Source: a virus. Taken from it: a stretch of 64,000 bases of DNA. Both the position numbers and the translations under genes were made by a program. How positions within the stretch are numbered: position 1 is the stretch's first letter; each line of letters opens with the position of its first letter. Shown here one piece after another: positions 521 through 63,567 of this stretch. The notes beneath the pieces were generated by a model. It did no database searches and had not been told where the DNA came from. It saw only the letters and a program-made list of their open reading frames with translations. Where the stretch lies: IMG/VR virus record IMGVR_UViG_3300013113_000534, positions 3,440-67,439 of that record. One strand, given 5' to 3'.

Positions 521-660
521 TTACAAAAAATAGGGTTAGCATCTGGCTCAATATCAAGCGTGTCATCTGCAAACTCGCAATGAAAAACCCTTGTGTATCC
601 GTCCCCCTCCATATTACCCCCACAGTTAGGGCAGCAGAAGGATATTAGTTGTTCGTTCAT
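481..660 (-). CDS. small Cys-rich hypothetical protein (59 aa)
   Basis: Below ORF-track cut-off: MNEQLISFCCPNCGGNMEGDGYTRVFHCEFADDTLDIEPDANPIFCKENAHRGGTGEAS; ATG overlaps the Clp stop (ATGA). Confidence 0.7.
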   Translation of the reverse strand: MNEQLISFCCPNCGGNMEGDGYTRVFHCEFADDTLDIEPDANPIFCKENAHRGGTGEAS

Positions 661-2939
661 ACTTTAATTTTGTTAAGGTTTATTTCGGAGCAGTTTTCCG
701 TGATTTTCTCGCAAATGAACTTATTAATATAAGTATCAAACCTTTCCTCAAAGTCAACTAGATTTTTAGAGGAACGAGCGAACTTCTTTAAGAAGTCCAA
801 GGTGAATGTCACTTCAATGTTGTTTAAACGTAGATCATTATTGATCTTTCGGAGCTTGTTGTAAAGGATTCTAAAAATATCCTTCTTTTTAACCTTCTGC
901 AATAATACATTGCAGTCAACCAGAGATAATAATTCTTTAAAAATCGATGAGGTTGGAGACTCTTTGTCAGAATTAAAGCCCATTGATGAAGAATTCTCTA
1001 CTCCGCTAGTTACAAAAATTTTGACGTTGGAAAAATCAGCTATGTCTCCATTGGACATTTGTAGCTTCCCGTCTTTGAGTATTTGAGCAAATAGGCTCTT
1101 AACAGACGGGTGTAGTTTGTGGAAGTCATCAATAATAATGACGCTATTAGGATGAATATTAATCTTCTCACATAAAGAAGTGTTGTTCATGATTTCTGGT
1201 AAGATTTTAAACTTAGCGAACTCATCTGAGAAATGAACTCCACTGTAGTCTAAGACATTCACCCCACTCTTTTCCAAAGAATCCTTCAAGGTAGAGCAGA
1301 AAAAACTTTTGCCCGTAGACTCTTCACCAGTAATGCAATAAATACTTGGGACTGAACTTTTTTTATGTATCCCGTAGCTTGAAAGTGATATTGATTCAAT
1401 AAGAGAATCGATAATTTTATTATTACCCACAAACTTTTCTTTTAAGCTGAGAGATAGGTCTGATAGAATATTCGGCTTCCGTAAAGGGTTTTCCTTCTTG
1501 GAGAAGAACTCCTTCAAGTGTTTTACTGTAACATCCGGCAATGATTCTTCTTTTTCGCTTACCCAAGAAGATAGTTGATCTGTAACGAAAGAAAGAACAG
1601 AGTCTGCGTCATTAAGGTCGATATCTTTTTCTTTGATATTTTCTTTAATTTCTTTAAGAGAGGAATCTTGACCCCAATGAGAAACTTTTGCTTGTGCTCC
1701 ACAATGATCAATAACATCAATAGCTTTGTCTGGATAAAACTTATTTGGGAGGTATTTCTCACAAAAGTTAATGACGTTATTTAAGAAGTTCTCCGTGTAA
1801 CGAACGTAATGAAACTCTTCGTAATACGAGGCGATAACGGGTAATATCTCCTGCATCTGAAACTTGGAAGGCTCCTTAATAATAACCCTTTCAAAACGAC
1901 GATCTAGAGCAGTGTCTTTTTTAATCGTCTTGGTATATTCATTAATTGTAGTCGCCCCAATACAACTTATAGTGCCTCTTGCTAATTCTGGCTTGAGTAT
2001 ATTTGAAGCTTCCAAAGAGTTCTCTGTTGTCCCTCCTGCTCCCACCAAAGTGTGAATTTCGTCTATGAAAAGGATAATGTTATCGTATTTTTTAACCTCA
2101 TCTACAAACTTTTCTAGCCTCTCTTCGAACTGTCCCCTGTATTGAGTTCCAGCGACCATGCTTGATAAACTCAAAGAGTAAATCACCTTATTGGCAATAA
2201 GTTCTGGAGCTTCCCCATTAACAATCTTAGAAGCTAACCCCTCAATCAAAGAGGTTTTGCCTGTTCCTGCTGGCCCTACTAAAATCGCGTTAGGCTTTTT
2301 CTTCCTACAGAGGATCGTGGCTATCTCTGATATTTTATCATCAAAGTCAACAACCTTGTCAAACTCATCACGGGAAGCTTTTAAGTTTAAGTTCTCCGCA
2401 AATTCATCTAGGATCTTATTTTCGTCAAACATCCCGATCCAGTTTCCCATAGGGGGATTGGGATCATCGCTTTCGAAATCAAATTCCATTTTTGGCTCTT
2501 CCTCATCTTTCAAGAAAAAAGAAATATCAGTAATTAGATGATTACGATCATCTGCGTTAAAAACTTCTGCTAAAGCCTTTGGAGTGTAATCATCGCTCAA
2601 CATGCATAAAAGCATTGACTCCATGCTTATGTAATCTAACCCAAAAAGCTCTTTCTGGATAAACTCGCAATGATCGATAAGCTGAGATAGTTTGTTTGAA
2701 TACTGTCTAGAAACCTCCTTATTTGGTTTTTTATTTTTAATAACATTTTTTGCAGCTATATCAAGTGCCTTAATGCTATCATATCTTCCTAAAATGGTTT
2801 CACATGACAAGCTTATGTCATCCATGAAGCAGGAAAAGAAAATATCTAAATCGACTTTGTTTCTCCCAAGATGTTCAGTTAAGTCTTGGGAGTTTTTTAA
2901 TATAGAGGTTAGTTGAGGAGTAAAGGGCAAGTCATTCAT
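657..2939 (-). CDS. ClpA/ClpC-family AAA+ chaperone/unfoldase
   Basis: Clp N-domain-like start, GPAGTGKT, AGTQYRGQFEERL, LFIDEIHTLVGAG, IGATT, DTALDRRF, PDKAIDVID; degenerate second NBD; MGF loop. Confidence 0.93.
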   Translation of the reverse strand: MNDLPFTPQLTSILKNSQDLTEHLGRNKVDLDIFFSCFMDDISLSCETILGRYDSIKALDIAAKNVIKNKKPNKEVSRQYSNKLSQLIDHCEFIQKELFGLDYISMESMLLCMLSDDYTPKALAEVFNADDRNHLITDISFFLKDEEEPKMEFDFESDDPNPPMGNWIGMFDENKILDEFAENLNLKASRDEFDKVVDFDDKISEIATILCRKKKPNAILVGPAGTGKTSLIEGLASKIVNGEAPELIANKVIYSLSLSSMVAGTQYRGQFEERLEKFVDEVKKYDNIILFIDEIHTLVGAGGTTENSLEASNILKPELARGTISCIGATTINEYTKTIKKDTALDRRFERVIIKEPSKFQMQEILPVIASYYEEFHYVRYTENFLNNVINFCEKYLPNKFYPDKAIDVIDHCGAQAKVSHWGQDSSLKEIKENIKEKDIDLNDADSVLSFVTDQLSSWVSEKEESLPDVTVKHLKEFFSKKENPLRKPNILSDLSLSLKEKFVGNNKIIDSLIESISLSSYGIHKKSSVPSIYCITGEESTGKSFFCSTLKDSLEKSGVNVLDYSGVHFSDEFAKFKILPEIMNNTSLCEKINIHPNSVIIIDDFHKLHPSVKSLFAQILKDGKLQMSNGDIADFSNVKIFVTSGVENSSSMGFNSDKESPTSSIFKELLSLVDCNVLLQKVKKKDIFRILYNKLRKINNDLRLNNIEVTFTLDFLKKFARSSKNLVDFEERFDTYINKFICEKITENCSEINLNKIKV

Positions 2940-5500
2940 TTTTTCTTAAGATCCATTAGTTTCATCATGATTTTAGTATCTACAACCCTTGCTGAGTCTA
3001 CGAAATTACTACCACGACCTTTGCTTGCGTTCAAGATCAAAATACAGTCTTTTGAAACTTTATATTGATCAAGGAAGTCTGAAAGAGTCTCAGACCTTGA
3101 GTTATCCATCATTAGAAAGCTAGCTGAAGCAGTATTATCTGAACCCTCAATAAGCATATACTTATTCCCATTTTGGGATATTCTTATGAAGAAATCTTTA
3201 ACTTGACAAACGGTTTTGAACTTAGAGTTCTCTGGGATCTCATCCAATTCTTTTAGGCAACTCATTGAGCCAAACTCGTCTTCAAAGCAGTCCTTCAAAT
3301 CAAAAGAATAACTGTAGCCTAATAAACTGTTTTCATACCACCAGTTAGAGAACTTACGATATGGTTTATTCTTGTCAAAAATTTCTTTATAATTCTTGAA
3401 CTTCTTTTTAAACGTCTCAAACCTAGACTCCTTCATTATTGGGCGACCATCATCGGCAATGGCCTTAGCTTCAATGACTTTAGATATTGCATGTAAAATA
3501 TCGTCACCAAACCTGTCTTTAAAAAGAATAAAATTCCTCTTCTCTCTATCGGTCAAGATATTGAATGCTTGAGCCTCTAGAACCAAACGACTCCTTTTGT
3601 CTGTAGCCTCTCCCATAGCTCCAGCTTGGATTAGGGCCACTAAGACAGAAATGTTAATGCCACAACTTTTCGCAGCGGAGAAAACATCATACTTGCTAGA
3701 AAACCCATCAGAACCTTTGAAATATATAAGGCTCTCAATCGACTTCGCTGAAATGCCTTTAATGCTGTTCAGACCATATCTGATATTGTCCCCTTCAATA
3801 GAAAAATTCATTTCTGATTTAAACAAGTTAGGCGGCAGAAGTTTAATGCCGAAATGATCTAATTCTTGGTGGACAGAAGCGACAACCGCCAAGGGATCTG
3901 GATCAAACTCAGATGACTCAAGGACAGACAAGAAGAACTCTCTAGGATACTTATACTTCAGGTAAACCGTCTTGGCTGCTAACTCAGCGTAAGCAAAACT
4001 GTGAGACTTGTTAAAAGAGTAATCTGCTGAAGCTTGGAGAGCACTCCAATAGAAATCACTAATCTGACTATCTAATCCCAAATCTTCTGCGGCTTGATAA
4101 ATCCTATCCCTCCACTTAGGCATCTCATCAGCCTTCTTTTTACCAACAATTCGACGAAGAGTTTCTGCCTCTTCTAGGGTCAAACCGAAAACCTTATTAG
4201 CAATCTGCATCAACTGCTCTTGATACAAGATAACGTTTTTAGACCAAGATAGAATTTCATCTAGCTCCTCATGAAGGTCGCTTGATTGAGGAGCTTGTTT
4301 TTGTCGAATATATTCATCAACAAATTGCAAAGCCCCCGGTCTAGCAAGAGCTACAACGTCAGAAAGTTCATTTAAATTGTCTGGCTTAACGTCTTGGCAA
4401 ACCCTAAAGTTTGTATTAGCAGAAATCTGAAATAAGCCCTCTGGATGGTTGTAATCCTGAAGCTTCTCGTATATGAACCCATCATTGGGGTCAACGTCAT
4501 CTATATTGATTCCAATTTTGTCGCAAGTCCTGTGAGCAATAGTTAGAGTTCTAAGACCAAGGATATCGAACTTAACCATAAGGTCAGCGACATCGTGCAT
4601 ATTGTAACCTGTTATCAGGTCTCCATCTTTAGTTTTTTGTAGAGGTACAACATCTCCTATTGATTGGGAGCAAATAGCAATGCCAGATGGATGGACTCCC
4701 GTGTTTTTGATTAAATTTTCTATCTTCTTAGCGTTGATAAAAGTCCTGTTATGTTTTTTCACCCAATGATCAAACTTCTCATTCTCTTCTCTCGCGTTCT
4801 CCAAAGAAGATACTTTGCCATGAAGCTTTGGAATCATATCGCTAACCGCATTGGCTTGATCCTCCTTAGCCTCATCAAAATACTTGGTTGCCTCCCTAAT
4901 GCAAAGTTTAGAGCTGAAAGTATTGAAGGTTAGAATCTTCGCCGTCCTGCCCTCATGTTTTTCTTCAATATATTGAATAACTTTCTGCCTTTGCTCATAA
5001 CTAATGTCTGAATCAACATCAGGGAGAAGGCTACCAACAAGAAACTCTTTGTTCCTCTTATCGTAAACTTTTTTAGCACGACTCTTAGAAACAAAACGCT
5101 CAAAGAATAAGTTGTGAGGGATGGGATCAATATTGGTTACCCCAAGTAAATACAAAACTAAAGAACCAGCAGCGGAGCCACGACCAGCTCCAGTAGGAAT
5201 ATTGTTTTCGTGACAGAAGTTTAGAACATCCCAGTTCAACAAAATATAATCTGTGAATCCAAGCTCTTCAAAAGTTTCTAGCTCTTGTTTAGCGCGATCA
5301 AAATATTCTTTTTTGTTCTCATATTTAGTAATCCCCTTATCCCGTAAGCCTTTACGGGTAAGCTCATACATAATCTCTTTGGTTGAGCTTTCTTTATCAA
5401 GACCAATGCTGTTCAAAACAGCTTCGCTAACCGAAGTTTTTGGCAGCTCCACACCAAGTGGCTCACAATCATCGTAAACAGAAAAGTCTTCAAACATCAC
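2936..5500 (-). CDS. dnaE: DNA polymerase III alpha, catalytic core lacking the PHP domain
   Basis: GAGRGSAAGSL, LFFERF, PDVDSD, GVHPSG, KFDILGL, RPG, YQEQ, YSFNKSH, IRYGLNSIKG; C-terminal OB-like region. Confidence 0.95.
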   Translation of the reverse strand: MMFEDFSVYDDCEPLGVELPKTSVSEAVLNSIGLDKESSTKEIMYELTRKGLRDKGITKYENKKEYFDRAKQELETFEELGFTDYILLNWDVLNFCHENNIPTGAGRGSAAGSLVLYLLGVTNIDPIPHNLFFERFVSKSRAKKVYDKRNKEFLVGSLLPDVDSDISYEQRQKVIQYIEEKHEGRTAKILTFNTFSSKLCIREATKYFDEAKEDQANAVSDMIPKLHGKVSSLENAREENEKFDHWVKKHNRTFINAKKIENLIKNTGVHPSGIAICSQSIGDVVPLQKTKDGDLITGYNMHDVADLMVKFDILGLRTLTIAHRTCDKIGINIDDVDPNDGFIYEKLQDYNHPEGLFQISANTNFRVCQDVKPDNLNELSDVVALARPGALQFVDEYIRQKQAPQSSDLHEELDEILSWSKNVILYQEQLMQIANKVFGLTLEEAETLRRIVGKKKADEMPKWRDRIYQAAEDLGLDSQISDFYWSALQASADYSFNKSHSFAYAELAAKTVYLKYKYPREFFLSVLESSEFDPDPLAVVASVHQELDHFGIKLLPPNLFKSEMNFSIEGDNIRYGLNSIKGISAKSIESLIYFKGSDGFSSKYDVFSAAKSCGINISVLVALIQAGAMGEATDKRSRLVLEAQAFNILTDREKRNFILFKDRFGDDILHAISKVIEAKAIADDGRPIMKESRFETFKKKFKNYKEIFDKNKPYRKFSNWWYENSLLGYSYSFDLKDCFEDEFGSMSCLKELDEIPENSKFKTVCQVKDFFIRISQNGNKYMLIEGSDNTASASFLMMDNSRSETLSDFLDQYKVSKDCILILNASKGRGSNFVDSARVVDTKIMMKLMDLKKK

Positions 5501-6111
5501 AAATTCATTTCTTTTTTAAGTGCAGAAAAAACCTTAAAGCACATCTTATTATCATACAAGGCATCATGTAATTTATCTTCCTCAAACTCAATGCCAAAGA
5601 ATTTAAGTAGCTGGTTTTGAGACACTCTTGCCTTGAGGGATCGGTCATGGATTATTTTATACTGCCAACTCAACAAATCTTTCTTGGGCTTGTCCAAATC
5701 CTCTCTGTAAGCCTTGCCAAAAGCTCTAGTGTCATAAATTCTATTGAGATACGAATAATCAGGAGTTTCTCCCAATAACCTTTGCATCCCAGCTACCATG
5801 TAGACATCGAATCCTAGAAGGTTCTGGCCAACAATTTTATATTCTGGGTTAAATAAATCAGCCTTGAAGTCGGCCCAAACTTTCTTCAAAGGTTCTTTTC
5901 TTTCGTTATACTCATCCCAAGTAAAACCAGTAAGGCGCTCTACTATTTTATTTATTTGTAGATCCTTGTGACTAATATACCTATCATTCTCTTTAATTAC
6001 CCTGTTGCCTTGGCAGATCAACCATGAAACCTGCCAAGTGCGAGAAGAATGTAGATTAAGACCTTCAGTTTCCGTATCGAAAACTAAATATTTTTGATTA
6101 TGTGGTAGCAT
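5497..6111 (-). CDS. DEDDh 3'-5' exonuclease (DnaQ/epsilon-like)
   Basis: VFDTETEG, GQNLLGFD, YDT, LHDALYD. Confidence 0.9.
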   Translation of the reverse strand: MLPHNQKYLVFDTETEGLNLHSSRTWQVSWLICQGNRVIKENDRYISHKDLQINKIVERLTGFTWDEYNERKEPLKKVWADFKADLFNPEYKIVGQNLLGFDVYMVAGMQRLLGETPDYSYLNRIYDTRAFGKAYREDLDKPKKDLLSWQYKIIHDRSLKARVSQNQLLKFFGIEFEEDKLHDALYDNKMCFKVFSALKKEMNL

Positions 6112-28290: not shown

Positions 28291-29396
28291 GCCACTTAGT
28301 AGAAGTTTACGCAAAAGACTTGGGAGTTAAAATTGGCGAACCCCATTTTAAACCTCATTTTTTTCCTCTTCTTGAAGATAATTATATCACCATCCATAAT
28401 GATAATAAAGTTCAATCTAAAGAATACGATTATTGGGAAGAGGTTATTTGCTTAGTTAAAGAGCAAGCTCCAGATATTAAGTTTATTCAAATAGGCTCTG
28501 GAGAAGAACCAAAAATAAAAAATGCTACAAAGTTTCTTGCTACTACCAGTATCAAGCAATCTGCTTATATTATCAAGAATGGGCTTATGCATGTTGGCAC
28601 AGATAGTTTGCCAGTTCATATTGCCTCCTCCTTTGATAAACCTATTGTTGCGATATACGCACACACATACGCCTCTACTTGCAGTCCAGTCTGGGGTTCG
28701 AAAAAGAACCATACAATAATTGAATCTCATAGGAACGGCAAGAAACCATCTTACTCTTTAAAAGAGGAGCCTAAGCAAATCAACTTGATTAAACCAGAGG
28801 AAATAGCTAACGCTATTCTAAAAAAGTTAGGCAAAAACAAGAGTTCTAGAAAAACAATTTTTATTGGCGACAGATATAAAGAACAATTTATCCATATCAT
28901 ACCAGATAAGAAATATGGGGTATCATCTAAACAAACGGTTCTTAGGTTTGACTTACATCATGATGAAGAAAACACTCTGCACTTATTCGAAAATAATAAT
29001 ATTTCTATTGTGACAAACAAGCCATTAGGGGATAAAATTTTAAGTCAAAAAAATATTAATTGCATTAACTATTTCTGTGATCGATTCGACTCAGAGTTTA
29101 TCGAAAGAGCAAAAAAGAAAGGGGTAACTTTGCGCTTATTTTGCACAGATGAGAAAACCATTAATGAAGAAAGGTATAAGTTTTTCGACAAACAAATCTC
29201 TTTGATCAACGACTCTAAAAAAGTAGAGGAAGCAAAAAAAATGGTCGAACTCCCGAAAGAGGATTTAAAGATAAAATCTTACACAATTTATTTTAAAAAT
29301 GGGCAAGCATATCACTCTCTCTTTGAGGCAAATAACAAAGAAAATTTAGACGATATTTTCATTGACTTGGATAAACTCATGCTTTATACTGATTGA
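28287..29396 (+). CDS. GT9-like glycosyltransferase
   Basis: IQIG, HVGTDSLPVHIASSFDKPIVAIY. Confidence 0.75.
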   Translation: MSHLVEVYAKDLGVKIGEPHFKPHFFPLLEDNYITIHNDNKVQSKEYDYWEEVICLVKEQAPDIKFIQIGSGEEPKIKNATKFLATTSIKQSAYIIKNGLMHVGTDSLPVHIASSFDKPIVAIYAHTYASTCSPVWGSKKNHTIIESHRNGKKPSYSLKEEPKQINLIKPEEIANAILKKLGKNKSSRKTIFIGDRYKEQFIHIIPDKKYGVSSKQTVLRFDLHHDEENTLHLFENNNISIVTNKPLGDKILSQKNINCINYFCDRFDSEFIERAKKKGVTLRLFCTDEKTINEERYKFFDKQISLINDSKKVEEAKKMVELPKEDLKIKSYTIYFKNGQAYHSLFEANNKENLDDIFIDLDKLMLYTD

Positions 29397-54237: not shown

Positions 54238-56127
54238 TCAAATAGTAAACGGTATAAATGTAGACTCAGGTTTTTTCTCAGCAGTTACATTAAGAGAATC
54301 AAAATATACTTTGGCGAACCAATTCCCTAGAATCAAAGCAGAATAAGAGTCTTTGCGTGCTCTATTCGGCCCCTTCTGTCTTCGGATGTTTTGGGGCAAG
54401 TTAAATGACTGTGAACCTTGGGGGTTTGTAGTAACCTCAATGTTAGCGCATTCTGACTTTGTAAGTTCAATGTTAGTTTTCTGTTGATCAATAAGATCAA
54501 TCATTTTAGCTCCTTTTGAAGTGGCTGTAATTTTATTATCCCACTTTATCTCATCAATCGGCAAATTCCCTTTTCTTTGTCGGTCAAAGTGATCGTCTAC
54601 CGCTCTGGAACCAAACAGTATTCTTTTATGGTCTATTGCTGCTTGCAACATTTCATTACCGCTTCTAATCCAGTTGACCGTAGGTTTTCTTAAGACACAG
54701 TATTTTCTCTCCTTTTGGTTATATTGGCTCTTAAATTGTGTGATGTCACTATGCCATTGATCAGGCTTTTCTAAATCTACTTCAATCACTCCAATATTCA
54801 CATTCGCCTTTTTAAACAACTCACTCTCATTACAAGAGTTAATGAACTGAACTCCTCCATTGTAGTCACCGCATATACCCACGATATTAAAGTATTCAAT
54901 AAGATACAGAAAATACCTCATATGCTCTTTTAAGGACACTCCAGCCACTGCGTAACTATGAACAAGGCAAATCTTCTGTTCGTCCCCCAGAACCTTAAAT
55001 ACGTGCATTGCGAAGTGGTCAGCACTTGTGTTACCAGCCCAGTTGGGGTCAAAAGCAAGAATATACTCGTCACTTGGATTCCCAATTACCTCAACAGCAG
55101 GAAACTCTCCATCAGCGATAGTGCAAGCTGCCATTTTAGATAATCTGAAATAACCATCACTCTCATCTACAAATTGTGCGCCGAACTCTCGTTTAAACTG
55201 CATCTCAGACATGGTAGCCTTCGCCTGTTTAAGCAGGTTCTGATCGTAAAGTCTTGTCGGAGCACAGTCGTAACTTAACTGCATAATTAATCTATATGCA
55301 TCATCAGCCGCTTGCTCTTCTTCATCATCTCTGTCGAACTCTCCGAATATAAGACCCTCATACTTTTTGTAGAGTTTATACATATATTCGAATTTGAATG
55401 ACGGAGATGAAAGTATTATCAGTTTGTTATTTGGCCATACATACCTATCTTCCTCTTTCAGCTCGCCCTTGTCGATAAGGCGGGATTCTAGTTTATGTAG
55501 TTCCTCCCTTTCAATAGGATTCTCTACAACTCCAAGGAATGGTATGATAACTTCATTGAATATCTTTTCTGGTATTGTTAAGAACTCATCTAACACTATC
55601 CTATTAAATCGAAATCCCCTCAATCGTTCTCCGTTAGCTAATGGCAAAGCTATTGCGCGGCTATTACCAATCTTTAAAGTCCACTGGTCAGTTCCTTTTG
55701 TTATTTTAACTCCGCATTCTTTTGCGAGCTTTGCCTCTGGCTTACTAAGGATATCTTCCATCTTCTGGAAGATTTGTTTTGATTGCCTAAAGCTACCTGC
55801 AATAACGCCTATATTTGCATTAGGGTTTAGTAGACATTCAAGTAACACATAAATAGCTGTAGAGAAAGTCTTAGACATACCACGGGAGAATACGAACATC
55901 GAATAGTCCGATACCATCATCCCCTTGATAGCCATAGCCTGAAATGGGAATAACTTTACCCCCAAAAATAATTCGGAGGTAAATGCTATATTAGCTCTTA
56001 AAAACTTATATAACAAATACTTAGCTTCCTCATCAGGCAAGTCGCCATCAAGTGTTTTTAAATATGTATTAAGTTCGTTCGCGGAATAATCATTTCGATA
56101 CCGCTGTTTTCCTTTCTGCCATGCCAT
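54238..56127 (-). CDS. terL: terminase large subunit
   Basis: LFPFQ, SRGMSKT, RGFRFNRIVLDE, LSS, AFDP, KDSYSA. Confidence 0.92.
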   Translation of the reverse strand: MAWQKGKQRYRNDYSANELNTYLKTLDGDLPDEEAKYLLYKFLRANIAFTSELFLGVKLFPFQAMAIKGMMVSDYSMFVFSRGMSKTFSTAIYVLLECLLNPNANIGVIAGSFRQSKQIFQKMEDILSKPEAKLAKECGVKITKGTDQWTLKIGNSRAIALPLANGERLRGFRFNRIVLDEFLTIPEKIFNEVIIPFLGVVENPIEREELHKLESRLIDKGELKEEDRYVWPNNKLIILSSPSFKFEYMYKLYKKYEGLIFGEFDRDDEEEQAADDAYRLIMQLSYDCAPTRLYDQNLLKQAKATMSEMQFKREFGAQFVDESDGYFRLSKMAACTIADGEFPAVEVIGNPSDEYILAFDPNWAGNTSADHFAMHVFKVLGDEQKICLVHSYAVAGVSLKEHMRYFLYLIEYFNIVGICGDYNGGVQFINSCNESELFKKANVNIGVIEVDLEKPDQWHSDITQFKSQYNQKERKYCVLRKPTVNWIRSGNEMLQAAIDHKRILFGSRAVDDHFDRQRKGNLPIDEIKWDNKITATSKGAKMIDLIDQQKTNIELTKSECANIEVTTNPQGSQSFNLPQNIRRQKGPNRARKDSYSALILGNWFAKVYFDSLNVTAEKKPESTFIPFTI

Positions 56128-60011: not shown

Positions 60012-60040
60012 TTTTAATTGTCAGGCATCTGTGCTATACT
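60012..60040 (+). promoter_or_regulatory. early promoter for a leaderless mRNA
   Basis: A-tract, TTTTAA-N17-TATACT, then ATGCCC-ATG. Confidence 0.65.
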
Positions 60041-60046
60041 ATGCCC

Positions 60047-60247
60047 ATGAAAGAAATCAAAACTTCCTTAGTCTCCGATCTAACATTCATTGAAATAGCT
60101 GATACTCTTCGCCCTGATCAGTGGGCTGATTGGTATGTCGAATTCTCTTACAAAGGAAAAGAGTATGAAGGCTCTTTACAGGCTGGAGTTCACAACGAAG
60201 AAGATTTTCACCACGATGTCATCGACAACATCGAAGAAAAAAAATAA
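60047..60247 (+). CDS. early hypothetical protein
   Basis: 66 aa acidic; ATG 6 nt after TATACT. Confidence 0.7.
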   Translation: MKEIKTSLVSDLTFIEIADTLRPDQWADWYVEFSYKGKEYEGSLQAGVHNEEDFHHDVIDNIEEKK

Positions 60248-60301
60248 AAATAATAGCAAAAAAAGCTTTTAATTCATTCTAATACCTGATAAAATACACG
60301 C

Positions 60302-60577
60302 ATGGCAACGATATACACCAACGGAGTAAAAACCAAACACGCAGACGAAATCAAGAGTTTCGTCATCATCTCGAAAACCGATCAAGGCGAAGAGTTTGTT
60401 TGGGGCGAGACCACCAACACAAAAACAGTTGAGAAATTGAACAGTGGTCAGCACTGGGCTTTCCCCGAAGGGAAGTTCGTTCGCGTCGAGGAGTTTGAGA
60501 ACAGAAAGGCTTCTTGGGCTTCCAAGTATGGAGAAAGACTGGAAGTTCTTTATGGTCGCAACTCCCGCCCCCGTTAA
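60302..60577 (+). CDS. early hypothetical protein
   Basis: 91 aa; TAAAAT-N6-ATG. Confidence 0.7.
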   Translation: MATIYTNGVKTKHADEIKSFVIISKTDQGEEFVWGETTNTKTVEKLNSGQHWAFPEGKFVRVEEFENRKASWASKYGERLEVLYGRNSRPR

Positions 60578-60641
60578 AAAAAGTTTTCTTTTTATACGAA
60601 AAGAGCTTGCACCAATCAGAAAAATAAAGTAGAATTCACAC

Positions 60642-60833
60642 ATGACAGCAACCGAAGAAGCACTAGCAGCAATGAAGAAAGCAGAACAAGCGTGGGACGA
60701 GATGGTCAATAGAACCGTTGAAGTCTCAGGCCAGTTCGTAAAAGAATGCCAAGAGTTCCAGAAAGAACAAAAGGAATGGTTCCTTAAAAATGTGCCTGAT
60801 CAGCCGAAGCAAGACCCTAGGTTTCTCGCCTAA
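60642..60833 (+). CDS. early hypothetical protein
   Basis: 63 aa; TTGCAC-N17-TAGAAT-N6-ATG. Confidence 0.7.
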   Translation: MTATEEALAAMKKAEQAWDEMVNRTVEVSGQFVKECQEFQKEQKEWFLKNVPDQPKQDPRFLA

Positions 60834-60860
60834 AAAACAACAAGTAAGAACACTAACACC

Positions 60861-61085
60861 ATGAATCTCCACAATTTTAAATATCAATCCCCAATGGGGA
60901 AAGCTATCTTGATTCTCACCTATCCCATTCTCTTCCCTCATCACATTGGGGAGTGGATGCGTGCGCGTGAGTTGAAGCGAATCATTCGCAAAGGTCTTCC
61001 CGAGGCGTGCAAGAATCCGCAGGGCGTGACTGCGGAAATCGTAGACGAAGCGAGTTGGGAGCTACGCTCGATTTACGGCAAGTAA
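60861..61085 (+). CDS. early hypothetical protein
   Basis: 74 aa, short hydrophobic stretch. Confidence 0.6.
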   Translation: MNLHNFKYQSPMGKAILILTYPILFPHHIGEWMRARELKRIIRKGLPEACKNPQGVTAEIVDEASWELRSIYGK

Positions 61086-61092
61086 AAAGTTT

Positions 61093-61158
61093 GGGTGGCC
61101 TATGGTTTCGACGAGACGCGAGTCTCGGACGGGGGTTCGATCCCCCCGCCATCCACCA
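61093..61158 (+). ncRNA. mini-tmRNA: tRNA-like domain only, no mRNA-like domain
   Basis: acceptor GGGTGGC/GCCATCC with G3:U70, A73, CCA; stemless D-loop ..GGTTTCGA; 6-bp helix closed by a GCGA tetraloop; GAC; T-arm GGGGG-TTCGATC-CCCCC. Confidence 0.85.
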
Positions 61159-61168
61159 AAAAAAATAC

Positions 61169-61321
61169 TTGACACGTTGAGTTTTTATGTTATAAAAAAA
61201 ATCGCTGTAACTCACTGAGTATCAACGAGTTACGGCGAAGCGCCCCGCCCCGCCCCGTAACTGACTGAGTATCAACGACTTACGAAGGTTTTTTCTATAT
61301 CAGAACGAGCCATCGTGTCAA
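61169..61321. repeat. symmetric element copy 1: convergent TTGACA promoters around two 27-bp palindromes
   Basis: palindromes 61207-61233 and 61257-61283; 23-bp GC spacer. Confidence 0.85.
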
Positions 61322-61400
61322 CACTTTTAATGAGAAAAAAAGTTTCTTTTTTATGCAGAAAAAGCTTTTCTTTTGTGAGATTCTCCTCTATACTATGCCC

Positions 61401-61643
61401 ATGTCCGACACCACATCACCTAACTTCCGCACTTACAGAACTAAGCACCTCATTCTCTCAGTCTACCGCACGGGGATGACTTACTTGCACATCTCTATAA
61501 AGAATAGTCAGTGGAGCAGATATAAATTCCAAGCTATCACCCGCGAGCAAGCAGCGAAAGCCCTCCTCGATATCCGCGCAGTCAAACGCGCAGCTAAGAG
61601 AGCAGAGGCCCAAGCCCTTGTTTCTGTCGCTTCTTACCTCTAA
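61401..61643 (+). CDS. early basic hypothetical protein
   Basis: 80 aa; TATACT-ATGCCC-ATG. Confidence 0.7.
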   Translation: MSDTTSPNFRTYRTKHLILSVYRTGMTYLHISIKNSQWSRYKFQAITREQAAKALLDIRAVKRAAKRAEAQALVSVASYL

Positions 61644-61699
61644 AAAAAATCAAAATAATCCTTGCATCAACCCCAAATCTAGAGTAAAATTACCTCGTT

Positions 61700-62032
61700 A
61701 TGAAAAACACCACTACCACCACCACCCGCTTCGATCACTCCCTCTATGGACTCAGCGACGAAGATCTCAAGAAAAAGCTCACCAATCGCGTGGTGACTTA
61801 CTTCAACAGCGACGAGTCCACTGTTAAGAGTGACGGCGTTCGTCAGTTCGTGATCAAGTCCATCGACTACACTGGTCACGCTAAAGGCTCGGGTCGTCGC
61901 TTTATCCAAGGCGAAGTCCAAGACCTCGACGATGGAGGCAAGTCCAAGTTCCGCACCCTGCACGTTGGCGGGATCGAAAAGGTGAAGGGTCGCGTGGCCA
62001 CCGCTTACCAGCTAGCCAAGTCAGTTTTCTAA
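61700..62032 (+). CDS. stand-alone WYL-like/SH3-fold protein
   Basis: TYFNS..GVRQFVI..FIQG..D..FRTLHVGGI; TTGCAT-N17-TAAAAT promoter; biased codons. Confidence 0.55.
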   Translation: MKNTTTTTTRFDHSLYGLSDEDLKKKLTNRVVTYFNSDESTVKSDGVRQFVIKSIDYTGHAKGSGRRFIQGEVQDLDDGGKSKFRTLHVGGIEKVKGRVATAYQLAKSVF

Positions 62033-62047
62033 TGGTGTTGTGTGTCA

Positions 62048-62084
62048 GCCCGTCAGTCTCTTCGGAGGCTGGCGGGTTTTTTTT
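62048..62084 (+). terminator. intrinsic terminator
   Basis: GCCCGTCAGTCTC-TTCG-GAGGCTGGCGGGT followed by a T-run. Confidence 0.85.
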
Positions 62085-62140
62085 GTGTTTTTATGCAAAA
62101 AGATCTTGTGTTTAATTCTTTTCTGGAGTATAATCTCGGC

Positions 62141-62374
62141 ATGGCAACAGTAACACAAGACCAGCTAGCAGAATTCGCATATAAGGCAGCACTCAACAAT
62201 CAGGAGAGCGAAGACTGCCCGACTTCCTACCTTGGGTATATCATACCTGATGAGTTCCCGAATGGAGAGGAATCATATGAGATCTGGGCGATGGCTTACA
62301 AGGAAGGGCTAGAGGACGCTGGGACATACATGGCGCAAGGCGCGGAGGATCGAGCGCGAGACTGGCAAGACTAA
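62141..62374 (+). CDS. early acidic hypothetical protein
   Basis: 77 aa; TTGTGT-N17-TATAAT-N6-ATG. Confidence 0.7.
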   Translation: MATVTQDQLAEFAYKAALNNQESEDCPTSYLGYIIPDEFPNGEESYEIWAMAYKEGLEDAGTYMAQGAEDRARDWQD

Positions 62375-62387
62375 CCACCCCGCGCAA

Positions 62388-62413
62388 GGCTCCCGAAAGG
62401 GAGCTTTTTTTTT
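62388..62413 (+). terminator. intrinsic terminator
   Basis: GGCTCCC-GAAA-GGGAGCT followed by a T-run. Confidence 0.85.
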
Positions 62414-62434
62414 GAATTAAATTAATCTTTTGGG

Positions 62435-62586
62435 TTGACAGCCGCGAGAAAACAACTAATAAGAAAACCCTCGTAACTCACTGAGTATCAAGGAGTTACG
62501 GGCGGGGCGGGGTCGCTCGCTCGTAACTCGTTGAGTATCAAGGACTTACAACGTTTTTTCTTTATAGTAAACGAGAGGAGAGTCAA
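62435..62586. repeat. symmetric element copy 2
   Basis: palindromes 62473-62499 and 62523-62549; TTGACA on +, TTGACT on -. Confidence 0.85.
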
Positions 62587-62665
62587 GCGTTTTTCTAAGA
62601 AAAAAAAATAAGAAAAGATGCAGAAAAAGCTTTTCTTTTTTAAGGTTTTCCTTTATACTATGCCC

Positions 62666-62914
62666 ATGTCCGACCAGAACCAAACCACACTTCCCTTCTC
62701 TGCTGCTAAACTCTTGATCAAAATCTGTCGCCCTGCTGCCAGAGTCGAAGGAACGGAAGATGAACTTTATCCCGATGAATGGGCATTGCATTGCCAGCCT
62801 AGCAACTCCAGAGATCTTCTGACTAAATTGGGCTTGATCACTTGCTTTGCTTGGGTAAACAAAAATCAATATCTTCCCACCGAAAAGGCTTTGAACCTTT
62901 ACTTCAAAGGATAA
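62666..62914 (+). CDS. early hypothetical protein (winged-helix-like end)
   Basis: 82 aa; TATACT-ATGCCC-ATG; LTKLGLI..YLPTEKA. Confidence 0.65.
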   Translation: MSDQNQTTLPFSAAKLLIKICRPAARVEGTEDELYPDEWALHCQPSNSRDLLTKLGLITCFAWVNKNQYLPTEKALNLYFKG

Positions 62915-62955
62915 AAAAATAAATTTAAAAAGGGCTTGCGCCCATCTAATTAGGT

Positions 62956-63165
62956 ATGACCACCGTTAAACAGCTAATCGAACACTTGCAAACCTTACCA
63001 CAAGAAGCGGAAGTTTACGCTCGAAACGAATGTGGCGAGAGTCGCGAATTAGATTTGGATAATTACAATGTTTACGTTTCAGACTTTCGTGAAGGTAAAA
63101 ACCAATTGGTAAAGGAAGGTCACCATCTTTTCGGTAGGGTAATTGTAGACATCGAAACCGAGTAA
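62956..63165 (+). CDS. early hypothetical protein
   Basis: 69 aa, TVKQLIEHLQTLPQEAEV N-terminal motif common in small phage proteins. Confidence 0.75.
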   Translation: MTTVKQLIEHLQTLPQEAEVYARNECGESRELDLDNYNVYVSDFREGKNQLVKEGHHLFGRVIVDIETE

Positions 63166-63185: not shown

Positions 63186-63338
63186 TTGACAAGCCCCGTT
63201 CTTACGCTAAGAAAAAAATCGCTGTAACTCACTGAGTATCAAGGAGTTACGGGCGGGGCGGGGTCGCTCGCTCGTAACTCGTTGAGTATCAAGGACTTAC
63301 GAAGAATTTTTCTTTATCATAATTCTGAAGCATGGCAA
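63186..63338. repeat. symmetric element copy 3
   Basis: palindromes 63224-63250 and 63274-63300; 77-bp core identical to copy 2; TTGACA on +, TTGCCA on -. Confidence 0.85.
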
Positions 63339-63451: not shown

Positions 63452-63567
63452 AGCTCTATAGTTTAAAAAGTAAAACATTCTCCACGACCTCTCGGTATGC
63501 CGAAGTCACTGTAACCCTAATGGTTCAGGCGAGAAAGACAAAGGTGCAATTCCTTTTAGAGCGACCA
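63452..63567 (+). ncRNA. tRNA-like RNA with a 48-nt two-hairpin insert in place of the anticodon loop
   Basis: acceptor (A)GCTCTA/TAGAGC(G)-A-CCA, D stem GTTT/AAAC, anticodon stem TTCTC/GAGAA, T-arm AAAGG-TGCAATT-CCTTT. Confidence 0.75.

Follow-up and report, generated by a model that had tools for sequence, protein, structure and literature searches.

Trans-translation is the main ribosome-rescue and protein quality-control pathway of bacteria, and the effects of phages on this pathway are poorly known. A 66-nt RNA gene in a viral DNA fragment raises the question of whether a phage can encode a tmRNA reduced to its tRNA-like domain (TLD) and, if so, what such an RNA would do in an infected cell. 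The window (i.e., the whole 64,000-nt stretch of DNA that was analyzed) corresponds to bases 3440-67439 of a 67,439-nt IMG/VR virus record with a CheckV completeness of 49%, and its source is an uncultured marine phage lineage. The first-pass annotation had described the gene as a tmRNA reduced to its TLD with no tag frame, as neither an att remnant nor a permuted gene, and as a kind for which it knew of no described phage example.

Anatomy and Identity of the RNA Gene

A search with the Rfam tmRNA model (RF00023), as the first-pass annotation had proposed, matched positions 61093-61158 (+) from end to end (model positions 1 to 374) with 53.8 bits and an E value of 2.3e-18, against a gathering cut-off of 47 bits. 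In this alignment four nucleotides, GCGA, took the place of 312 model positions, those of the pseudoknots and the tag frame. Every structural element that had been claimed from the letters was present in the sequence, with the fold and RF00023 in agreement (Table 1). The D-loop analogue ended in GGTTTCGA, and the GNRA tetraloop GCGA (61118-61121) capped the helix-2 stub at the usual site of the pseudoknots and tag frame. The interior was only 16 nt long (6-bp stem plus GCGA) and contained no resume codon, tag frame, stop codon, or pseudoknots PK1-PK4; none of the triplets TAA, TAG, and TGA occurred in any frame of the 66 nt. The minimum-energy fold was exactly the expected structure (-31.5 kcal/mol, z -2.27), and 9 of 200 shuffled sequences folded equally well. 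Our own covariance model, R1, scored the gene at 79.5 bits, a value to be read with the sequence being part of the R1 training set.

On RF00023, no ordinary 76-nt tRNA of five bacterial genomes exceeded 41.4 bits, which does not reach the cut-off, so 53.8 bits is not the level of a plain tRNA. The mini-tmRNA was the one RF00023 match in the whole 67-kb record (49% complete), and ARAGORN called no tRNA or tmRNA in the whole window. Three other identities were considered and rejected. A tRNA-Ala, which would have a 7-nt anticodon loop with an NGC anticodon, was ruled out by the 4-nt loop on a 6-bp stem and the missing D-stem, the best model of the Rfam clan being tmRNA and not tRNA. An attP site carrying a tmRNA 3' end was ruled out by the presence of the 5' half and by no PF00589 integrase being found in the record (49% complete), and a permuted (two-piece) tmRNA was ruled out by the normal 5'-3' order. 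The features that define the tRNA-like domain of a full-length tmRNA were present, while the mRNA-like domain and the pseudoknots were absent. The gene had the features of the TLD-only tmRNA of Mycobacterium phage DS6A, namely a complete TLD, normal order, a short hairpin closing helix 2, and a length of about 60-90 nt. The window gene is a TLD-only tmRNA derivative.

Six RNA sequencing runs shared only 5-6% of sampled words with the window, and four of these were aligned to the region. The metatranscriptome contigs from the four runs contained pieces of relatives' neighboring genes. Over the RNA itself there was one 35-nt T-arm/acceptor piece (61127-61161), whose own flanks did not resemble those of the gene and which probably came from another organism's tmRNA or tRNA.

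Table 1. Coordinates of the mini-tmRNA gene, its structural parts, and its immediate neighbors in the window.
Feature	Positions	Strand	Remarks
ORF of 74 aa, function not assigned by PHROG (no match)	60861..61085	+	Ends 7 nt 5' of mini-tmRNA
Mini-tmRNA gene, tRNA-like domain (TLD) only, 66 nt	61093..61158	+	RF00023 match, fold
Acceptor stem 5' strand GGGTGGC	61093..61099	+	Pairs with 61148-61154; G61095·T61152 = G3·U70
D-loop analogue, stemless, CTATGGTTTCGA	61100..61111	+	Aligned to Rfam tmRNA consensus ..GGaUUCGA
Helix-2 stub, CGAGAC 61112-61117 / GTCTCG 61122-61127, 6 bp	61112..61127	+	RF00023 alignment, fold
Linker GAC	61128..61130	+	GAT in most window-family members
T-arm, GGGGG / loop TTCGATC / CCCCC	61131..61147	+	RF00023, fold, relatives
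Acceptor 3' strand GCCATCC 61148-61154, discriminator A 61155, encoded CCA 61156-61158	61148..61158	+	Sequence
Promoter-like site TTGACA, 16 nt, TATAAA	61169..61196	+	By eye; missing from consensus scan; downstream of RNA, putative start of next unit

Phage Record and Gene Neighborhood

The large terminase (TerL) was encoded at 54238-56127 on the minus strand. Besides terminase, the window encoded a DnaE-type polymerase, DnaB, ribonucleotide reductase, PhoH, a sigma-70-like protein, and a Clp/Hsp100-like AAA+ ATPase; this gene set is that of a large lytic-type phage. Cultured phages gave no nucleotide match to the window phage and no TerL match above 28% identity, while its DnaE shared approximately 31% identity with human-gut phage fragments and 131-kb Streptomyces phages. 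Searches of the 67-kb record (49% complete) detected neither an SmpB gene nor a tyrosine integrase (PF00589). The 5' end of the TLD, searched with up to three mismatches against 401 Actinomycetota and 401 Gammaproteobacteria genomes, gave only chance-like matches in coding-like sequence.

The Clp/Hsp100-like ATPase (760 aa; 657-2939, minus strand) contained the domains AAA, AAA_lid_9, and AAA_2. Proteins tagged with ssrA are degraded by Clp unfoldases, and a tie between the phage ATPase and the mini-tmRNA is at most conceivable.

The mini-tmRNA lay in a plus-strand block of small ORFs (60041-63165), none of which matched a PHROG of known function. The end of the 74-aa ORF immediately upstream was conserved ahead of the mini gene in most window-family contigs, and the 7-nt gap between the two makes co-transcription probable. 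Promoter-like sites of the form TTGACA/TATA(A/C)T dotted the block when it was inspected by eye; a consensus promoter scan gave them no support and was uninformative (7 sites vs. 5.3 expected). A promoter-plus-start block, AAAAAGCTTTT...TATACTATGCCCATG, recurred on the plus strand at approximately 60020-60050, 61353-61403, and 62618-62668. In this block an ATG follows the -10-like TATACT by about 7 nt, which suggests leaderless early mRNAs.

The same part of the window contained three copies of a palindrome module (61207-61283, 62473-62549, and 63224-63300, plus strand), each comprised of two 27-nt sites (GTAACTC, 13 nt, GAGTTAC) at 50-nt spacing with a G/C-rich run between them. Every copy had a TTGACA promoter-like site before it and a T-run at its end. 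The palindromic sites matched six times, with none expected by chance, and the RNA fold of the module had a z of -3.54 with no Rfam family. Many copies in both orientations occurred in TerL-related contigs. The module may serve a phage regulator as paired operators, or it may be a small RNA or a terminator. A tRNA-like RNA at 63452-63564 (+) scored 41.9 bits with the Rfam tRNA model and carried a 47-nt insertion in the anticodon arm. ARAGORN rejected it even with the intron search, and its fold had acceptor, D, and T arms with a branched middle arm.

Close Relatives of the Window Gene

The TerL search returned 202 related viral stretches, from which 80 loci were kept; approximately 22 of the 80 extended upstream to the region in question. 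BLAST and the covariance model placed the mini gene in four of the 80 loci (L012, L013, L017, and L078), and with about 22 loci showing the region the gene is thus a sporadic accessory element of the phage group. A full tmRNA in relatives, an outcome that the first-pass annotation had named as speaking against its reading, was found at the same place in none of the 80 TerL-related loci.

The looser pattern scan described below enlarged the family to at least 18 contigs other than the window, all from separate IMG/VR data sets and all with the full gene (65-66 nt). The family RNAs were 83-95.5% identical to the window copy, while the 100-nt flanks in several contigs were approximately 52-58% identical. 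At least three different upstream and at least three different downstream contexts were represented, and none of the window-family members was within 2 kb of a tRNA gene or in a tRNA array. Judged by this conservation, the window gene is a discrete gene under selection and not an artefact.

Within the family, helix-2 pair 2 was G-C in the window and A-U in L013, and acceptor pair 5 was G-C in the window and A-U in L078. Helix-2 pair 3 was A-U or G·U in the family, with a G·G mismatch in the L017 subfamily (at least nine contigs). The changes within the family respect the structure; the L017-type G·G counts against perfect pairing.

TLD-Only Genes in Viral Contigs

The first search pattern (TTCGACG, 8-38 nt, GGACGNGGGTTCGA) matched nine viral stretches. 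Five contained RF00023 matches of 70-82 nt above the cut-off (L005, L006, L007, L008, and L010), two were permuted tmRNAs matching RF04321 (L002 and L003), and two had no match at gathering (L004 and L009). A looser pattern, with 9-39 nt between the halves, matched 114 viral stretches, of which 80 were listed. Parts of the D-loop and T-arm are fixed in this pattern, which leaves the acceptor stem and helix 2 free. Covariance model R1, built from 11 sequences, was run on 69 of 72 new loci, the three omitted (L111, L128, and L146) being the same contigs as L013, L078, and L017. Among the matches listed, 54 of the 69 viral loci had a match at E<=1e-7.

In total, there were at least 67 TLD-only matches (E<=1e-7) from 66 sources, including the training sequences and DS6A. 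These represented at least 50 distinct sequences of 62-89 nt, 39 of the 50 having played no part in building R1. TLD-only homologues with compensatory changes, which the first-pass annotation had suggested seeking in phage sequences, were thereby found. Interior lengths between the halves clustered near 14 nt and near 28 nt among the matches listed, and the 66-nt window gene was the shortest form seen apart from a few of 62-65 nt. ARAGORN called none of the 67 minis a tmRNA and made one doubtful tRNA call, so TLD-only genes go unannotated. Fourteen of the 67 were within 2 kb of a tRNA gene, and five were inside tRNA arrays. Three mini-carrying phage genomes that were at least 92% complete (175, 112, and 106 kb) contained neither an SmpB gene nor a full tmRNA that could be found, and in each the mini was the sole RF00023 match above the cut-off.

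The looser pattern was also run on genomes of 185,579 species, where it matched at least 120 stretches, of which 80 were listed. Four of the 80 listed cellular stretches had an R1 match at E<=1e-5, and one had a match at E<=1e-7. Set against the viral proportion at E<=1e-7, and among the matches listed, these counts indicate that the TLD-only form is largely viral. Judging from the covariance-model matches, the TLD-only kind is far commoner in phages than one published case, and it is common in viral contigs.

One viral contig (L163) contained two different TLD-only genes 3.5 kb apart, at 1562-1638 (-) and 5108-5183 (-), with R1 scores of 63.8 and 49.4 bits. In L006, a Pistol ribozyme match at 5916-6012 (-) scored 50.7 bits (cut-off 34.5) and lay 2.2 kb from the mini-tmRNA of that phage. 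Weaker TLD-only-like matches of 84-91 nt (R1 38.9-48.4 bits) occurred in four bacterial genome contigs (L206, L208, L210, and L236), from two Planctomycetes MAGs, Microvirga lenta, and one unclassified MAG; these may be prophage copies or parts of permuted genes. A 3'-half match in Cellulophaga phage phi14:2 was rejected (R1 24.3 bits, no convincing acceptor stem).

Pairing, Covariation, and Alanine Identity Elements

Across the 50 distinct sequences, standard pairs filled 99.1% of cells; shuffled sequences gave 74.4%, and slid partners gave no more than 61.9%. Both-sided changes were present in 9 of the 16 pairs, and the covariation score was 0.595 vs. 0.113. The alignment behind these pair counts was fitted to R1 and therefore leans toward structure, and the D-loop and T-arm parts say little because the search pattern fixes part of each. 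Acceptor pairs 4-7 covaried, with both-sided changes in 13-22 of the 50 distinct sequences per pair, and the four basal helix-2 pairs covaried across relatives.

Among the matches listed, G1-C72, G2-C71, and G3·U70 were invariant in 50 of 50 distinct sequences, and the discriminator was an A in all 50. ACCA was encoded in 34 of the 50; in the other 16 CCA was not encoded. Alanyl-tRNA synthetase is known to recognize its substrates by the identity set G3·U70 plus A73. Charging would appear to be selected, since G3·U70 and the discriminator A are frozen beside acceptor pairs 4-7 that covary freely.

Relation to Described TLD-Only RNAs

The statement that no phage example had been described did not stand. 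Hudson, Lau and Williams (2014) list "Mycobacterium phage DS6A (TLD only)" (PMC4131195, in extract), and the DS6A case is cited again in a 2025 database paper (PMC11915505, in extract). Full-text searches on TLD-only, tag-less, minimal, truncated, and CDS-less tmRNA yielded no further phage cases; tabulated census and database entries may hold more. A census of phage tmRNAs relied on ARAGORN, according to the extract of PMC9004378, and on that basis would miss TLD-only genes.

The DS6A gene was located at 28478-28560 (+) of JN698994 (L092), between gp33 and gp34, where it is unannotated in GenBank. Rfam at gathering and a regular expression both missed it, while R1 found it with 48.9 bits. The DS6A RNA (tmRNA Website tmID 11587; Mao et al., 2009; Hudson et al., 2014) shares with the window gene its phage origin, its derivation from tmRNA, and the lack of a tag frame. 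In both, the acceptor stem includes G3·U70, the D-loop has no stem, helix 2 is short and capped, and a T-arm is present; the window gene aligns with DS6A and with 49 further distinct minis under the one model R1. The two genes differ in length (83 nt in DS6A vs. 66 nt in the window), DS6A being high-GC and its helix-2 stub longer; in the motifs GTCGAC and GCAC of DS6A vs. TTCGAC and GGAC of the window gene; in the encoded CCA, which DS6A lacks; and in the Rfam score, which is below the cut-off for DS6A and above it for the window gene. DS6A itself is a temperate actinophage with an integrase. The two phages are unrelated, given that the window TerL had no match above 28% to any cultured phage. 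The window gene is a DS6A-type TLD-only phage tmRNA, a kind already described.

Compared with standard tmRNA (RF00023; e.g., in cluster C mycobacteriophages and the 131-kb Streptomyces phages), the TLD of the window gene agrees position for position, and what it lacks is the resume codon, tag frame, stop codon, and pseudoknots. Organellar tmRNAs without a coding sequence (CDS) are known from jakobid mitochondria. CDS-less tmRNA genes of approximately 65 bp have also been described from Mallomonadaceae plastids (PMC11915505, in extract). Both organellar forms resemble the window gene in size and in having no tag frame; they are vertically inherited and served by a nucleus-encoded SmpB, whereas the window gene is a mobile viral accessory gene for which no SmpB of its own was found.

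Close parallels in design are laboratory TLD constructs used in SmpB co-crystals and in vitro trans-translation, in which the tmRNA ends are joined by a tetraloop as in the window gene. The crystallized Thermus construct (25 + UUCG + 34 nt) binds SmpB, and ribosomes lacking an mRNA make polyalanine when given a TLD fragment with SmpB (PMC3929946). A TLD-only tmRNA also accepts the peptide in peptidyl transfer (PMC3895274). These constructs were engineered, whereas the window gene is natural and under selection. In E. coli, a TLD-like RNA strongly inhibits tmRNA, irrespective of the chargeability of the RNA (Mao 2009, as cited in the extracts of PMC4131195 and PMC11915505).

Proposed Function of the TLD-Only Gene

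The reading that we favor, with a probability of roughly 0.5, is that the window gene is a functional phage TLD-only gene whose charged RNA would compete with host tmRNA at stalled ribosomes and give tag-free rescue. The RNA would be made from the early region of small ORFs, matured by the tRNA-processing enzymes of the host, and charged with alanine by host alanyl-tRNA synthetase via G3·U70 and A73. It would then bind host SmpB and EF-Tu and enter ribosomes stalled at the ends of broken mRNAs, against the full tmRNA of the host. The nascent chain would be transferred to the mini and alanine added with no ssrA degradation tag, since an RNA with no resume codon, tag frame, or stop codon could not add one. 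Ribosomes would in this way be rescued without tagging, and SmpB uptake would partly shut down the host system. Peptidyl-Ala-TLD might then be extended with more alanines, freed by ArfB or ArfA/RF2, or lost from the ribosome by drop-off. To our knowledge there is no known route that releases peptidyl-Ala-TLD from the ribosome without a stop codon, which counts against a charged competitor, as do the L017-type helix-2 G·G mismatch and the 16 of 50 sequences in which CCA is not encoded. In its favor, the behavior of the laboratory constructs and the inhibition reported in E. coli (extracts of PMC4131195 and PMC11915505) are taken together with the frozen alanine identity elements. Reliance on the host is suggested by the three near-complete mini-carrying genomes in which neither SmpB nor a full tmRNA was found. 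SmpB decoy and tag-free rescue, the two functions suggested at first pass, are both compatible with the literature and the conservation data.

A passive sponge, in which the RNA would titrate host SmpB and perhaps AlaRS and leave host tmRNA unstable or inactive, with no role for charging or ribosome entry, seems unlikely. Inhibition irrespective of chargeability (Mao 2009, as cited in PMC4131195 and PMC11915505, in extract) means that such a sponge would suffice, and since SmpB was found neither in the window record nor in the three near-complete mini-carrying genomes, host SmpB is the only partner available. If charging were irrelevant, however, G3·U70, the discriminator A, and the CCA end would be expected to drift, yet the first two are invariant in 50 of 50 sequences while neighboring acceptor pairs covary. 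Rather improbable is another tRNA-like role, either as an RNase P/Z cutting signal that ends or stabilizes the upstream mRNA or as a decoy or replacement substrate for a host defense nuclease directed at tRNA or tmRNA. Just 7 nt with nothing promoter-like in them lie between the stop codon of the upstream ORF and the gene, and the minis located near tRNA genes (14 of 67) or in tRNA arrays (5 of 67) would fit such a role. A processing signal needs neither the tmRNA-specific D-loop and helix-2 features nor an invariant alanine identity, however, and the sequence is kept across at least three different upstream contexts.

That the gene does not work at all, being left over from an att site, a tmRNA copy in decay, or the product of an assembly deletion, is very improbable. 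In favor of such a reading, the gene escapes ARAGORN, tmRNA 3' ends are a frequent component of phage attP sites, and only the 3' half was matched in phage records annotated with an integrase or attR. Against this, the two halves occur together in the usual order, with a stable GNRA loop closing them, and the same 65-66-nt form recurs in the 18 or more further contigs from separate IMG/VR data sets. The compensatory changes, the record in which no integrase was found, and the near-complete phage genomes (at least 92%) that hold the mini form only argue in the same direction. With no full-length tmRNA seen at this place in the 80 TerL-related loci, the remnant or artefact reading is close to refuted, and the first-pass view of the gene as neither att remnant nor permuted gene held up.

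Returning to the charged competitor of host tmRNA, a wider form of that reading is possible and is offered tentatively. TLD-only minis would be a widespread phage gene class of many unrelated lineages, with two size classes (approximately 62-66 and 80-83 nt), missed by standard annotation. They would have to be charged with alanine and, with host SmpB, would turn trans-translation into tag-free or alanine-tailing rescue, in which case they would actively rewire the host pathway for the virus instead of serving as simple decoys.

Implications for Phage Biology

DS6A, the one described TLD-only phage gene, has so far been treated as a curiosity, and the same design now appears in at least 50 distinct viral-contig sequences. 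The analysis adds that such genes are common and viral, have a well-supported structure, escape ARAGORN, and show a conservation that points to charging. As putative natural minimal SmpB ligands, the minis may be of use for structural and inhibitor work. TLD-only genes also give a straightforward experimental way to ask whether phages prevent tagging, contribute rescue capacity, or do both. If the charged reading is true, the minis would represent an active viral rewiring of bacterial translation quality control.
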